Shown here: one piece after another, positions 2,988 to 7,640 of the stretch | How positions within the stretch are numbered: position 1 is the stretch's first letter | Layout of the letters: each line of letters begins with the position of its first letter | NCBI GenBank assembly: GCA_965249705.1 | Contig: CBDFMO010000016.1 | Coordinates: 58,063 to 122,062 of the forward strand | DNA from: Sphingomonas sp. | GTDB taxonomy: Bacteria; Pseudomonadota; Alphaproteobacteria; Sphingomonadales; Sphingomonadaceae | DNA: 64,000 nt | Direction: 5' to 3' | The notes under the pieces: model-generated | What the model saw: only the letters and a program-made list of their open reading frames with translations | Database searches by the model: none | What the model was told of the DNA's origin: nothing | Program-made: the position numbers and the translations under genes

Positions 2988-3067
2988 GATGCTTCTCCAT
3001 TCGCTTCGCACCCGCCCCTTAGACCCGCGCGCTTGTCTCTGCCAGCCACTTGGCCGATGGCAGCGCC

Positions 3068-3745
3068 ATGACGCATTTTCCCTTCGACATCGTCGGCTTC
3101 GACCTTGACGGCACATTGGTCGACACATCAGGCGACCTGACGGCGGCGGTAAATCACACGCTCGGTCTGGCGGGCCGCACGCCGCTTCCGGCCGAGGCGG
3201 TACGGGGCATGATCGGTGGCGGGGCCAAGGCCATGTTGCAACGTGGCCTCGACGCGACCGGCGGCTGCGAGCCCGAAGAAGCGCGACGGCTCTACAAGTT
3301 GATGCTTGCCTTTTACGGCGAAAACATTGCCGTCTGTTCACGACCCTTTCCCGGCATGCTGGCCGCGCTGGACGAGCTGGACGCATTGGGCGTCAAAGTC
3401 GCGGTCGTGACGAACAAATTCGAGGGCTTTGCGCGCAAGTTGCTTGCCGAGCTCAATCTGGCCGATCGCTTTGCAACGCTGATCGGCGGCGACACCCTGG
3501 GGCCCGGACGCGCCAAACCGGCAGCGGACCCGATCCTCGAGATGATGAGCCGGCTCGGCGGCGGCCGCACGGCCTTTGTCGGCGATTCCATCTATGACAC
3601 CCAGGCAGCGCGGAATGCGAAAGTGCCGAGCATTGCCGTCTCGTTCGGCTTTCTCGACCGACCCGTGGCCGAGCTCGGCGCCGACGCCGTGATCGACAGC
3701 TACGGCGACTTGGTGTCCGTGCTCAGGACGCTTTGCGCCACTTGA
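3068..3745 (+). CDS. gph: HAD-family hydrolase, phosphoglycolate phosphatase-like
   Basis: FDLDGTLVDT motif I, TNK motif II, KP and VGDS..D motifs. Confidence 0.85.
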   Translation: MTHFPFDIVGFDLDGTLVDTSGDLTAAVNHTLGLAGRTPLPAEAVRGMIGGGAKAMLQRGLDATGGCEPEEARRLYKLMLAFYGENIAVCSRPFPGMLAALDELDALGVKVAVVTNKFEGFARKLLAELNLADRFATLIGGDTLGPGRAKPAADPILEMMSRLGGGRTAFVGDSIYDTQAARNAKVPSIAVSFGFLDRPVAELGADAVIDSYGDLVSVLRTLCAT

Positions 3746-4730
3746 TCCACAAATGCCGCGCCAGCATCAGCGGCGGCATGCGAAGCCAATGCGAGCGGAC
3801 GTAGAAGGCGAGGCGGAGCAGCGGGCGTGTCGGCCGGCCCCAGCCGTCGCGGGCGAGGAGGCGGGACCGAAACCATTTGTCCTGCCCGGTCAGACGGTCA
3901 TGCCGCTTGGGAATGGGCGTAGAAAACAGCTGGGCGGACAGCCGCAGGCTGCGGCGTACGACATCGGACAGTCCGTGGCGTTTTGCGTGCGCGTCGAGGG
4001 TGTCCCAGAAGGCTTCGCCTTCGAACTCGCGGACCAGCCGGTCAATGTCCCACAAGTTTCGCAAGCCTCCTGCCATGTCGCCATCGGCCAGAAGATGCGC
4101 AGCGGCGTGGATGACCATGTCCGCTGGGCACAGCACCCTCAGCCCATTTTCGAGCGGCAGGCTCGCCGCAATGAGCGCGTCCGCATCCGGCGTCGGGCGC
4201 GCTGTCAGCGGCAAGACCGTGTGGTGCACGTCGATCATCCGGTCGCGATCGCGGTGAATGAGGGGCGGCAGCTCGTGCATCCAGCGGCGGTAATAGGCGT
4301 CGTCATAGGGGTCGGGCTTGACCCATTCCCAGCCGGCCGCCAGCAATGCCGCTTCTGCCTCGTCGAGCCGGTTGGCGGGCACGAGAATGTCGAGGTCTCC
4401 GATGAGCCGTCCCTGCCCGGCGTCGAGGCCGGCTGCGACGAAGGCAGTTCCCTTCAGCAGCACGACGGGCATCCCAAGCGGCATGAGGGTGCGGCGCGCC
4501 ATTTCGGCTTCCCACAGCGCCTCGGTACGGCCGACGTCGGCCTCCACGCCCGCGCGGTCCAGCACGCCCTGGACGTCCTCGGGCAGGTCAAGGCCGCGGA
4601 GACGACAGGCCAGGCTTGCAAGCAGGCGCTCCGCGCGCGCTGCGCACAAAATGTCCGTCCATGCCGAGCGGTCGAGACCGGTCGCACCCGCCGGGTCCGC
4701 CAGCAGCGCGGCGACGCCCGCAGCCGTCAC
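3723..4730 (-). CDS. Nucleotidyltransferase family protein (NTP_transf_5-like) of the HPr-kinase-related cassette
   Basis: VVLLKGTAF and GDLDILVP motifs, later IDVHH; GTG start overlaps the kinase stop (GTGA). Confidence 0.8.
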   Translation of the reverse strand: MTAAGVAALLADPAGATGLDRSAWTDILCAARAERLLASLACRLRGLDLPEDVQGVLDRAGVEADVGRTEALWEAEMARRTLMPLGMPVVLLKGTAFVAAGLDAGQGRLIGDLDILVPANRLDEAEAALLAAGWEWVKPDPYDDAYYRRWMHELPPLIHRDRDRMIDVHHTVLPLTARPTPDADALIAASLPLENGLRVLCPADMVIHAAAHLLADGDMAGGLRNLWDIDRLVREFEGEAFWDTLDAHAKRHGLSDVVRRSLRLSAQLFSTPIPKRHDRLTGQDKWFRSRLLARDGWGRPTRPLLRLAFYVRSHWLRMPPLMLARHLWIKWRKAS

Positions 4731-5584
4731 AGCGCGCCCCACAAGTCGTCGATCATCCGGCGCGCGGTCGTCATGTCCGGATAATCGAGCGCGACTGCGG
4801 GCACGCCTTCGACAAGAGCAGTGAGAGCTGTAAAACCACGTTCGCCGAGCGCGACATAGTTTGTCGAGGCCTGCGTCAGCCGGACGAAGGCTTCGCTCGG
4901 CGCGACGGGGCGTGCGGCTTCGGACAGGCCAAAGCGCGGGAATGCAACGAGCGCCGGTGCGGCCGGGACACGCATGGCCTGCAGTGCGCTGGACAGCGGG
5001 GCGACATGACGAATGCGACCCTTGGGCGTGTTTTCAAGAAGCGGGCCGAACCGCAGGCGGTCGATCTTACTCAACGCCGCTTCGATGCCTTCGTTCTTGA
5101 GGCTGGACGGTCTGGGAAACGGAAAAGCCATCCCCGACTCAGGATCGATCAGCGCAAATTCGTCGCCCATGAAGCGCCAGCCGTCACTACCCAGCAAGGT
5201 TGCGAGCGTCGATTTCCCCGCGCCGCTCTCGCCGGTCAAAATCAGTGCGCGTCCGTCACGCTCGACGCTGGCCGCGTGCAGCAGGAGGAAGCGGCGCTCG
5301 CCAAGCGCAAGTTGCAGGTTCATCCCCATCTCGGCCGCAAGCAGACCGAGGCGCAGCGGTAGCGGCGCGGCCTCGGGCAGCGTGAAGTCTCCGCCGATTC
5401 CGAGTGTGGGGCGGATCCAGCGCCGCCACGGGGCGGCAGGCTCGAGACGCACCGTAAAATCTGGCACGCCCATGGGCGTCGGGTAATCCCGATACAGCGA
5501 TGCGAGCGCGGCGATCGGCGAGCGCCACGCACTACCGATCCGGAAGGCAACGGGCCCGACCTGTACGTCAAAGCGATGTTTCAC
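4727..5584 (-). CDS. HPr kinase-related kinase (HprK-related kinase A type)
   Basis: LLLHAASV, Walker A GESGAGKST, GDEFALID; cassette context with PqqD-like protein and nucleotidyltransferase. Confidence 0.85.
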   Translation of the reverse strand: MKHRFDVQVGPVAFRIGSAWRSPIAALASLYRDYPTPMGVPDFTVRLEPAAPWRRWIRPTLGIGGDFTLPEAAPLPLRLGLLAAEMGMNLQLALGERRFLLLHAASVERDGRALILTGESGAGKSTLATLLGSDGWRFMGDEFALIDPESGMAFPFPRPSSLKNEGIEAALSKIDRLRFGPLLENTPKGRIRHVAPLSSALQAMRVPAAPALVAFPRFGLSEAARPVAPSEAFVRLTQASTNYVALGERGFTALTALVEGVPAVALDYPDMTTARRMIDDLWGAL

Positions 5585-5829
5585 AGCGCTTCGACCAGCC
5601 CGCTCGCCGCCAGTTCCGCGAGGCGTTCGGCGAGCGCGTCCAGTTCTTCGATGCCCAGCCGGGAAGCGAGGCCGGGGATATCGGCGTCACCTTCCCCCAA
5701 TGCCTCCAAAACCGTTGGCACGATCTCGGACACGACATGCGTGGCGTTCGACCGCCGGTCGTAAATCGCCGTCATGCTGTCGAGACGGACAAGGCGCAGT
5801 ACGCCGAGAGCCGGCGCCCGAAACACCAT
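5581..5829 (-). CDS. PqqD/RRE-family peptide chaperone of the HPr-kinase-related cassette
   Basis: About 82 aa, LDSMTAIYDRRSNATHVVSE...LAERLAELAASGLV matches the PqqD beta-strand plus helix pattern; stop overlaps kinase ATG (ATGA); start placed at MVFRAP. Confidence 0.75.
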   Translation of the reverse strand: MVFRAPALGVLRLVRLDSMTAIYDRRSNATHVVSEIVPTVLEALGEGDADIPGLASRLGIEELDALAERLAELAASGLVEAL

Positions 5830-5840
5830 GGCTGGCCCGC

Positions 5841-6254
5841 TCAGCGGCCCGGCATCTGGAGCGACGCGTAGCAGGTGAAGCCGCTCTGTCCGCGCTGGAG
5901 GCGGCGGATATAGTTGGTCCATGCCTGGCTCTGCGACGGGTCGGCACCGGGAATGACATTGCCGGAAAGCGCCGCCTTGACGTCCTCACCCTTGAGCGGC
6001 GTAGCCGACCCGGGGAAGGCGCCTGCCGTGCCAGTGGGGACGACGCTGCCGTCGGCCGCAATATAGCTGCCGGCGCGACCGGCATCGGGCACGGGTATCT
6101 GGCAGGTCAGCACCGAGGTCGCGGCCTGCGCGATTGCTGGCCGGATCGTCACGACGGCGGCGACCCCAAGGCCGCCGAGCCTGAGCAGTTGGCGCCGGTC
6201 CGCCACGCCGTTCCGGGCCGCAAAGTCGTCGTCCTGTTCGTCCGCTGCCGCCAT
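5841..6254 (-). CDS. Hypothetical 137-aa protein with RR-containing leader and two Cys; first gene of the kinase cassette
   Basis: MAAADEQDDD...DRRQLLRLGGLGVAAVVTIRPAIAQAATSVLTC...SGFTCYASLQMPGR; ends 11 nt before the PqqD-like gene on the same strand. Confidence 0.7.
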   Translation of the reverse strand: MAAADEQDDDFAARNGVADRRQLLRLGGLGVAAVVTIRPAIAQAATSVLTCQIPVPDAGRAGSYIAADGSVVPTGTAGAFPGSATPLKGEDVKAALSGNVIPGADPSQSQAWTNYIRRLQRGQSGFTCYASLQMPGR

Positions 6255-6407
6255 GCGTTGCGCTGCCCCATTGTCTTCACGCTGTCTTCGACAAGCCATA
6301 TCGCCAATTTCGCCTTGTGGCGATGATGATTGGTTAACAATGGTGATCTGCGCGACTAGTCCCGATCCAGCGCCCGACGACTCAGTGCGGGCCGGAACCG
6401 CCATGTC

Positions 6408-7640
6408 ATGATCCGTACCGTGATTGCCCTGCTGATTGTCCTCATGGCAGCGCTGGTGGCGGGCCTCGTGCCGGACATCCGGGTTGGCGCCATGATCATC
6501 GGCGGCGTGACGGCGGTCCTGATGGTCGCGACCAGCCGCGTCGAGCCGCCCCAGGCGCGCATGCGCGCCACCCCGCCCCCGCCACCCGCCTCGGAACAAT
6601 CGGTTGTCGATGCGATCAGCGAGCCTGTGCTGCTCATTGTCGACGGGCGCGTCCGCATCGCCAACCAGGCGGCGCGTACGCTTCTCGGTGAGCATATCAT
6701 CGGCGAGGACGTCAGGCTTGCGATCAGGCATCCCGCGGCGGCCGAGCGGCTTGCCGCAGGCGGCATGGACGGCAGCACCGAGCTTGTCGGGCTCGGCGGG
6801 CGCGACCAGCGGGTCCAGATGCAGGTCTCGACGATTTCGCCGGGGCGGCGACTCGTCCACCTCATCGATCGGACAACGAGCTATGCGGCAGAGCGGGCAA
6901 GGGTGGATTTCGTGGCCAATTCCAGCCACGAGCTGCGTACGCCGCTGGCCGCCATCATCGGGTTCATCGAAACGCTCGACGATGAAAAGGCCGGATCGGA
7001 CGCGGGTGTGCGTGCGCGGTTCCTATCCGTGATGATGAAGGAAGCGCGGCGCATGCAGCGCCTGATCGACGACCTTATTTCGCTCAGCCGGATCGAGGCG
7101 GAGAAGTACCGCCTGCCCGACACGCCGGTGGCGCTCGGGCGCTTGATCGAGGAAGTCGCCGCCGACCTTCGCGATACGGACAGCACGGCGCGTGCCGACC
7201 TGCGGCTCGACATCGCCGACGATGTGCCCAATGTCGCGGGCGACGCGGCACAGCTCGCGCAGGTTCTCCACAACCTGGTCGGCAACGCCTTAAAATACGG
7301 CAAGCGTGGGACGCCGGTCACGATCGGCCTGCGCCGCGATGGAGAAACGCTCATCCGACTGTCCGTCAGCGATGAAGGCGACGGCATTCCGGCCGAGCAC
7401 CTGCCCCGCCTGACCGAGCGATTCTATCGTGTCGATCCCGGTCGCAGCCGAGCGCAGGGCGGCACCGGGCTGGGGCTGGCGATCGTCAAGCACATCGTAG
7501 AACGGCACCGTGGGCGGCTCGACATCGCAAGCACCCCCGGCAGCGGCACGACGGTGTCCATCCTGTTGCCGATATCGCTCATGCCGCCCAAACGACCCAC
7601 GGCGCCGGCAAGCGTTGTCACATCATTGTCATTAAATTGA
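6408..7640 (+). CDS. phoR: Phosphate regulon sensor histidine kinase
   Basis: N-terminal TM pair, H-box HELRTPL, N-box NALKYG, G1 DEGDGI, RFYRVD, G2 GTGLGL; directly upstream of pstSCAB-phoU-phoB. Confidence 0.9.
   Translation: MIRTVIALLIVLMAALVAGLVPDIRVGAMIIGGVTAVLMVATSRVEPPQARMRATPPPPPASEQSVVDAISEPVLLIVDGRVRIANQAARTLLGEHIIGEDVRLAIRHPAAAERLAAGGMDGSTELVGLGGRDQRVQMQVSTISPGRRLVHLIDRTTSYAAERARVDFVANSSHELRTPLAAIIGFIETLDDEKAGSDAGVRARFLSVMMKEARRMQRLIDDLISLSRIEAEKYRLPDTPVALGRLIEEVAADLRDTDSTARADLRLDIADDVPNVAGDAAQLAQVLHNLVGNALKYGKRGTPVTIGLRRDGETLIRLSVSDEGDGIPAEHLPRLTERFYRVDPGRSRAQGGTGLGLAIVKHIVERHRGRLDIASTPGSGTTVSILLPISLMPPKRPTAPASVVTSLSLN

Follow-up and report, generated by a model that had tools for sequence, protein, structure and literature searches.

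Organization of the operon

The sequence analysed here, referred to below as the window, is a stretch of 64,000 nucleotides (nt) from the genome of a Sphingomonas sp. (assembly GCA_965249705.1, contig CBDFMO010000016.1, positions 58,063 to 122,062 of the forward strand). Our subject is a small operon near its start that encodes a candidate substrate protein and three proteins related to the enzymes and binding partners of peptides that are synthesized on the ribosome and modified after translation (RiPPs). Reading the open reading frames (ORFs) of the window placed four tightly coupled genes on the minus strand, all at the coordinates first noted. The first of these is P0001 (5841-6254), an ORF of 137 amino acids (aa) that we treat as the candidate precursor, or substrate. 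It ends 11 nt before the ATG (5829) of P0002 (5581-5829), which encodes a PqqD-type RiPP recognition element (RRE) of 82 aa. The stop codon of P0002 overlaps the GTG start of the third gene as GTGA (5581-5584). This gene, P0003 (4727-5584), encodes an HprK-related kinase A of 285 aa, and its stop codon overlaps a GTG at 4730, again as GTGA. The fourth gene, P0004, encodes a nucleotidyltransferase of family PF14907 and extends from 3723 to either 4730 or 4742, depending on whether translation starts at the overlapping GTG or at an in-frame GTG at 4742.

An initial annotation, made from the sequence alone, had described four coupled genes on one strand, several features of their products, and the lack of a lasso cyclase at the locus. 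The reading of ORFs and junctions, together with the domains found in the flanks, bore this description out. Among the flanking genes, none had a cyclase-type, peptidase or exporter domain. An asparagine-synthetase-like macrolactam cyclase domain was absent within 6 kb on either side of the operon, and no genome-wide search for a cyclase was made. The lasso B2 peptidase model NF033537 found no match in the whole genome, which is 99.6% complete, whereas the same search in a control genome gave a match. The lack of a B2 peptidase excludes a lasso pathway. The module is thus a compact four-gene operon without a dedicated protease, cyclase or exporter.

The three proteins of the modification cassette

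The model of the PqqD-like protein generated by AlphaFold2 (AF2) from an alignment of 30 orthologues had a predicted local distance difference test (pLDDT) score of 95.7 and displayed three strands and three helices, which is the layout of an RRE. When this model was searched with Foldseek, the top matches in the PDB were TbiB1 and FusB1, two lasso B1 proteins with leader peptide bound. Next came the RRE domains of CteB, ThcOx, TigE, TruD/LynD, McbB and PbtF, with template modelling (TM) scores of 0.55-0.74 over the matches. These results support the earlier identification of the PqqD-like gene as an RRE. Searching the PDB by sequence returned nothing meaningful, either with this protein or with the nucleotidyltransferase. 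All 30 aligned RRE orthologues matched TIGR04353, the 'HPr-rel-A system PqqD family peptide chaperone' (best E = 3e-18). A profile search with the RRE alignment returned 4234 clusters; among the 150 listed, no RRE was fused to a twin-arginine (RR) leader and all stood alone. Four of the listed homologues had C-terminal extensions, none of them with an RR leader.

The kinase scored 215.4 bits against TIGR04352 (HprK_rel_A), for which the cut-off is 200, and aligned to positions 3-280 of the 280 in the model. Its P-loop, GESGAGKST, occupies aa 118-126, and over the P-loop region the protein gave weak alignments with PDB 1jb1 and with the C-terminal domain of HprK. Nine kinase orthologues from different families share H103, S120-G-x-G-K-S-T126, D141-E142, R158, K163 and K188 without exception. 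The nucleotidyltransferase matched PF14907 (NTP_transf_5) with E = 1.3e-49 and is encoded by the only PF14907 gene in the genome. Across 43 orthologues of this enzyme, the residues K97-G98, G111-R112, D116-x-D118, E130, D171 and H173 never vary, which leaves the pol-beta-type catalytic signature intact. Judged by their motifs and folds, all three proteins of the cassette look functional.

In a sample of the phylum, 62 of 401 genomes had a kinase above the TIGR04352 cut-off, and matches to the kinase at E <= 1e-20 occurred in 35 of 212 genera. Within its own class, kinases above the cut-off were confined to the order of the window; two other genomes of the class gave partial, sub-cut-off matches of about 86 bits. 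Scores in other classes of the phylum ranged from 330 to 395 bits versus 188 to 324 bits in the window's order. These lower scores suggest that the order may have acquired a divergent copy of the kinase.

A family of proteins with conserved leaders and variable cores

The translation of P0001 contains an acidic N-terminus followed by DRRQLLRLGG, AIAQA, TCQIP and SGFTCYASL, all as noted in the initial annotation. The twin-arginine leader spans aa 18-44, with the two arginines at aa 20-21 (nt 6192-6197). An invariant threonine, Thr36 (nt 6147-6149), lies inside the hydrophobic region, and the leader ends in AQA with cleavage predicted after aa 44. The mature part is rich in Gly, Ala, Pro and Ser, and contains the invariant residues Cys51 (nt 6102-6104), Cys128 (nt 5871-5873) and Ser131 (nt 5862-5864), the last two within T-C-Y-A-S-L. 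Scanning P0001 and six diverse relatives against Pfam and NCBIfam assigned no family, with just sub-threshold matches to Tat-signal models in the relatives. In the Sphingomonadales subfamily alone, 3046 sequence clusters are homologous to P0001, all labelled 'hypothetical protein', and the named homologues derive from Sphingomonadales metagenome bins.

We aligned 27 members of the family, which we call class I precursors (mean column identity 22%). Only six columns were invariant: R20, R21, T36, C51, C128 and S131. Pairwise identity was unevenly distributed: the leader stood at 0.47 and the middle at 0.11, with 0.36 for the C-terminal motif, which has the form [ST]-C-[WYFL]-x-S-[FLI]. The conserved threonine sits exactly 15 residues past the arginine pair in 20 of the 27 sequences, and the first cysteine follows 13-21 residues past the threonine. 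Mature parts always contain two or four cysteines. Ser131, in the C-terminal C-x-x-S motif, is the sole invariant hydroxyl residue of the mature part, and most class I sequences also have a serine 3-5 residues before the first cysteine. We considered a lipobox reading of the cysteine after the leader and rejected it, since in most members the residues before the first cysteine depart from L-[AS]-[GA]-C.

A second class of precursor, 190-225 aa in length, was found upstream of the PqqD gene at six loci (L022, L024, L027, L043, L047 and possibly L023). These class II proteins share the Tat-type leader, which is followed immediately by a cysteine and then by a segment rich in serine, C-[ST]-x-(x)-S-G-[FN]-x-S, and they have no C-terminal C-x-x-S. 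Their mature part appears unrelated to that of class I. Common to both classes is a serine within a few residues of the first cysteine; the candidate residues in P0001 at this position are T46, S47 and T50. A single set of enzymes that serves variable or even unrelated cores behind a conserved leader is the hallmark of RiPP-type substrate recognition.

One genome from another family of the order has two tandem precursor genes (L003, 16-426 and 825-1373). Their leaders and C-terminal motifs are near-identical, and the second has a long Asn/Gly-rich insert and two extra cysteines. The pair resembles the multi-precursor arrangement of RiPP clusters.

Precursor and cassette occur together

The initial annotation had asked whether a small RR-leader protein with a cysteine pair always precedes the kinase. 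We addressed this with 50 sampled kinase loci, drawn from the genus itself, from further families within the order and from further classes within the phylum, or 51 including the window. With tblastn, P0001 detected its counterpart within the genus only, at 63-78% identity. When the ORFs were read, 45 of these 50 loci had an RR-leader protein of 120-225 aa encoded directly upstream of the PqqD gene. Among the five exceptions, one locus was cut by a contig end, and a P0001-like gene was present on another contig of that assembly. Two more were resolved by reading wider flanks: in one the precursor was adjacent on the divergent strand, and in the other it stood 2.2 kb upstream, separated by a sulfotransferase gene. 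The last two kinase loci (L044 and L045) had no precursor nearby, even when the wider flanks were read. An RR-leader ORF therefore accompanies the cassette in 48 of 51 loci including the window, across families and classes and despite divergence of the mature part. Leader ORFs of the same pattern occur in this genome at a background of 0.024 per 2.5 kb, and the arrangement is found far more often than expected by chance.

The two loci without a precursor are unusual in other ways. The PqqD gene is missing from both (L044, 760-1272; L045, 2442-3695), and upstream stands an MNT-type nucleotidyltransferase (PF01909) in one and a family 4 glycosyltransferase (GT4) in the other. They may be degenerate or rearranged modules.

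Presence and absence within the genus gave the same picture, as 21 genomes carried a single-copy P0001 homologue adjacent to the kinase and 3 genomes had neither. P0001 is likewise single-copy in its own genome, where a search for similar leaders with the cysteine pattern found none elsewhere besides one spurious frame.

P0001 could instead be an ordinary Tat-secreted neighbour in the operon, with the true substrate encoded elsewhere or in a short unannotated ORF. It is far longer than classic RiPP precursors, and L044 and L045 show that a kinase can occur without an RR-leader ORF within the sequence examined. Nevertheless, we regard an ordinary neighbour as unlikely. Adjacency in 48 of 51 loci persists despite complete divergence of the mature part and over two seemingly unrelated classes of precursor, co-occurrence in the genus is perfect, and conservation is much stronger in the leader than in the core. 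Length is also a weaker objection than it seems, because precursors of linear polyphosphorylated peptides (LPPs), a system compared below, reach 200 aa. The single-copy status of P0001 and the near absence of similar leaders elsewhere in the genome also speak against an ordinary neighbour. The initial inference that the first gene encodes the substrate is thus backed by adjacency, by co-occurrence and by the pairing of a conserved leader with a variable core. On these comparisons, P0001 is probably the substrate of the cassette, an assignment that we consider well supported.

The leader as a probable Tat signal

Class I leaders follow the consensus RR-x-L-L-[RK]-x-G ... [PA]-x-V-x-T-[LIF] ... 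A-x-A. The arginine pair is present in all 27 aligned sequences, and nearly all members of the family have RR-x-[FL]-[LI]-[KR] followed by a hydrophobic region and then A-x-A. Compared with the S/T-R-R-x-F-L-K type of Tat motif, P0001 reads D-R-R-Q-L-L-R-L. The leader of P0001 resembles other Tat-type N-termini of the same genome, which also encodes TatC (PF00902, 230 bits, contig C13). Cysteines in even number (two or four) are as expected for proteins that form disulfides in the periplasm. Export of P0001 by the Tat route is plausible on these grounds.

Curated models of Tat signals (TIGR01409 and PF10518) did not match P0001, and its relatives scored about 13 bits versus cut-offs of 16.7 and 22.7. 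Falling short of the threshold is common for such short Tat-signal hidden Markov models. These low scores are nonetheless what would be expected if the RR N-terminus were a leader for recognition by the RRE that merely resembles a Tat signal, with the product remaining in the cytoplasm or leaving it otherwise after cleavage by an unknown protease. For a plain signal peptide, an invariant threonine at a fixed distance from the arginines (+15 in 20/27) is out of the ordinary; it points to specific recognition, which would also fit such a leader. We consider it improbable that the N-terminus is not a Tat signal, given that nearly all members have the canonical R-R-x-[FL]-[LI]-K, hydrophobic region and A-x-A, that every mature part has an even number of cysteines, and that TatC is present. 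Furthermore, explaining how the protein is processed calls for housekeeping export and cleavage, since neither a dedicated protease nor a dedicated exporter is encoded in the operon.

The kinase and nucleotidyltransferase require nucleotides of the cytoplasm, and there is no dedicated exporter or protease to act after them. The most economical reading is therefore that Tat export follows modification and that a housekeeping signal peptidase removes the leader. The invariant threonine within the hydrophobic region suggests that what the RRE reads is the signal itself.

Comparison with known systems

The same three protein types are found in the tailoring of paeninodin-type lasso peptides, which involves the kinases PadeK and PsmK, the nucleoside triphosphate (NTP) transferase PsmN and a B1 RRE (PMC6993621, PMC5067487). 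The RRE model described above also matches lasso B1 proteins best. In the pseudomycoidin pathway, a serine of the precursor is phosphorylated before cyclisation, and PsmN is then needed for hexose to be placed on the phosphate (PMC6993621). The Sphingomonas operon differs in that no cyclase, peptidase or ABC exporter is encoded by its flanking genes and no B2 peptidase by the genome. Its substrate would be a signal-bearing protein of 137 aa, unlike a lasso core of about 20 aa.

A closer counterpart is offered by the LPP clusters of Bacillota, which consist of LppA/B/K/N/S/D (Popov et al., Nat Commun 2026, May; PMC13381572). Here LppB is a discrete RRE, LppK an HprK-like kinase, LppN an NTP transferase, LppS a SipW-like signal peptidase (signal-peptidase-I-type) and LppD an MsbA-like pump. 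LPP precursors are linear, 35-200 aa long, and have a conserved leader and variable C-terminus. LppK adds several phosphates to Ser3 of the core, and cleavage by LppS requires the RRE. Capsule loci often harbour the clusters, and LPPs are, according to the authors, confined to Bacillota (PMC13381572).

The operon shares with LPP clusters a stand-alone RRE, a kinase resembling HprK, an NTP transferase and the logic of a linear precursor, and a lasso cyclase is absent from both. Relatives of the cassette in other classes are also often located inside polysaccharide loci. The differences are equally clear. The leader is twin-arginine (RR-x-L-L-[RK] ... V-T-[IL] ... A-x-A), whereas that of LPPs is YxxPxVLxHQxIxFETxxS, and this operon has neither a SipW-like LppS nor an MsbA-like LppD. 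The mature part carries an invariant cysteine pair and a C-terminal C-x-x-S, the host belongs to Proteobacteria, and the kinase belongs to the TIGR04352 clade. Placing the serine near the leader-core junction beside Ser3 of LppA is a positional analogy only. From these comparisons the operon appears to be a Gram-negative cousin of the LPP system, that is, a widespread proteobacterial version of LPP-type phospho-modification with a Tat leader.

This relationship bears on two earlier claims. The initial annotation had called the system uncharacterised, and literature searches by NCBIfam names and accessions indeed found no paper on the TIGR04352/TIGR04353/PF14907 cassette, on which two surveys of RREs were silent too. 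That description holds for the cassette itself, but the LPP pathway of Bacillota is a characterised relative (PMC13381572). It had also proposed that phosphorylated residues are then nucleotidylated, which the literature on related enzymes does not support. PsmN is the only PF14907-type enzyme with a reported product, being required, with its D-x-D motif, to add one or two hexoses onto the phosphoserine of pseudomycoidin, although its direct activity is unproven (PMC6993621). LppN had no activity in a heterologous host (PMC13381572).

In terms of the NCBIfam catalogue, the operon is a member of the HPr-rel-A system, as its kinase scores above the cut-off and the PqqD partner and PF14907 gene are adjacent. 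The catalogue names enzymes only, without a precursor, and the precursors that we tested match no NCBIfam or Pfam model.

Two further systems resemble parts of the arrangement. Precursors of the DUF2282 family have Sec-dependent signal peptides and are paired with DUF2063-type RREs, and no specific leader motif recognized by the RRE was found for them (PMC12710340). In both cases a secretion signal forms the N-terminus of a RiPP-type precursor with an RRE partner. The signal here is of Tat rather than Sec type, the modifying enzymes are different, and there is an invariant threonine at fixed spacing from the arginines. The Tat proofreading chaperones TorD, DmsD and NapD are small cytoplasmic proteins that bind a twin-arginine signal and await insertion of a cofactor. 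The RRE would act similarly, as a small cytoplasmic protein proposed to hold a specific twin-arginine signal until maturation is complete. Its winged-helix fold is unrelated to theirs, however, and the event awaited would be covalent modification of a side chain rather than cofactor insertion.

Genomic surroundings

Neighbouring genes varied among the sampled loci. A GT4 gene lies directly upstream of the precursor in 17 of the 30 loci from other classes (L021, L025, L029-L040, L046, L048, L049) and in 0 of the 20 loci from the same order. In another class, a PF13469 sulfotransferase gene stands between the precursor and the PqqD gene (L042, 59-964; the same region in L053). Sulfotransferases are present in some paeninodin-type lasso clusters.

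On one side of the Sphingomonas operon are glmS and glmU, genes for synthesis of uridine diphosphate N-acetylglucosamine (UDP-GlcNAc), and a convergent gene for a phosphatase of the haloacid dehalogenase (HAD) family (3050-3745), whose 3' end overlaps that of the nucleotidyltransferase gene by 23 nt (3723-3745). On the other side are a divergent phoR-like histidine kinase gene and then pstS, pstC, pstA, pstB and phoU. The phosphate importer encoded by pstCAB provides the sole ABC components near the operon. The G+C content of the stretch around the operon is 65-68%.

Such surroundings raise the question of whether the two enzymes, kinase and nucleotidyltransferase, instead have a non-protein substrate, for example an exopolysaccharide, a lipid-linked sugar or a small molecule, with P0001 and the PqqD-like protein as accessories. 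The upstream GT4 genes in other classes, the sulfotransferase inside one module and the proximity of glmS and glmU could all be read in this way. We consider a non-protein substrate the most doubtful of the alternatives. The PqqD protein has a peptide-binding RRE fold that matches lasso B1 proteins best, and the closest characterised analogues, the kinases PadeK, PsmK and LppK with the transferases PsmN and LppN, work on peptides. The lack of GT4 neighbours throughout the same order means that polysaccharide genes are not required. Moreover, capsule loci surround LPP clusters as well, and there it is nevertheless a peptide that is modified.

Upstream of P0001 we found a conserved element at 6295-6337 on the minus strand. 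It consists of TTAACCA (6337-6331), N6, a -35-like TCGCCA (6323-6318), a 17-nt spacer and a -10-like TATGGC (6300-6295). In an alignment of the window with four loci of the same genus, the TTAACCA, ATCGCCA and TAT.G blocks did not vary. A simple scan for promoter and terminator consensus sequences found no promoter for the operon, and the putative sigma-70-type promoter at this position is called solely from conservation and spacing. A regulator might bind the TTAACCA block, which would then serve this operon and the divergent phoR-pst operon alike. We also considered a direct repeat just upstream of the P0001 start (GAAGACA-N4-GAAGACA, 6272-6289, 11-bp period), which resembles a Pho box when read on the opposite strand, as a Pho box shared with phoR. 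It was conserved in 0 of 11 loci of the same genus and is probably due to chance. An Rfam scan of 3400-6700 gave no match.

A proposed order of modification and export

Taken as a whole, we favour with moderate confidence the view that the four genes form a 'modify, then export' operon, which would make it a proteobacterial HPr-rel-A system with a previously unassigned substrate. The operon, families, folds, motifs and adjacency were computed, and from them we infer every binding, chemical and export step in the following scheme. P0001 would be made in the cytoplasm with its N-terminal twin-arginine leader. The RRE would bind the conserved hydrophobic part of the leader around Thr36 and recruit both enzymes, probably shielding the signal from the Tat machinery meanwhile. 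Using ATP, the kinase would phosphorylate, or perhaps polyphosphorylate, a serine. With Ser3 of LppA as the model, our first choice of acceptor is the group of Ser/Thr residues where leader meets core (T46/S47/T50), immediately preceding Cys51. The second choice is Ser131 of the C-x-x-S motif, by analogy with the C-terminal serine of paeninodin and pseudomycoidin. The PF14907 enzyme would then extend the phosphate with a sugar or another nucleotide-activated group. Finally, the modified protein would be exported by Tat, housekeeping signal peptidase I would remove the leader after A-Q-A, and a Cys51-Cys128 disulfide would form in the periplasm.

Several observations weigh against this scheme, in addition to the two kinase loci without a precursor and the sub-threshold scores against curated Tat models. 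The RRE of the window scores 32 bits against TIGR04353 (E = 1.8e-07), for which the cut-off is 35. The leader does not contain the [Y/W]xxP motif that is bound by the RREs of lasso and LPP systems, and the proline in the P-x-V-x-T-L segment of other families is replaced by alanine in leaders of the genus. The AF2 model of P0001, built from the 27-sequence alignment, was of low confidence (pLDDT 55.9, predicted template modelling score 0.25). It was too poor for a fold search and permits no statement on the presentation of the sites. Of all the steps, that of the nucleotidyltransferase is the weakest, because LppN was inactive and the direct activity of PsmN is unproven.

A more specific version of this scheme can be entertained, albeit tentatively and as somewhat less probable than not being the case. 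Under it, the Tat signal doubles as a RiPP-style leader, and the RRE, by reading the strand around the threonine, has two roles, recruiting the kinase/nucleotidyltransferase pair and proofreading export as a chaperone. An entire family of proteins secreted by Proteobacteria would then arrive in the periplasm with a Ser-O-(poly)phosphate-linked group, derived from a sugar or nucleotide, that can be installed in the cytoplasm only. If true, Tat substrates would gain a new class of covalent modification, and the use of Tat by small proteins without cofactors would be accounted for.

Implications

For years the enzyme trio of TIGR04352/TIGR04353 has stood in the catalogues with neither substrate nor function assigned. 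Once it is linked to a conserved family of Tat-leader proteins that lacks annotation, the system becomes directly testable. Should the proposed scheme be true, the chemistry of LPPs would extend from Bacillota to Gram-negative bacteria, and an RRE would be recognizing a secretion signal. Phospho-glyco or related modification in the cytoplasm would likewise be a new reason for proteins to be exported by Tat. The frequent exopolysaccharide-locus setting of the cassette in other classes hints at a role in the cell envelope or biofilm matrix.

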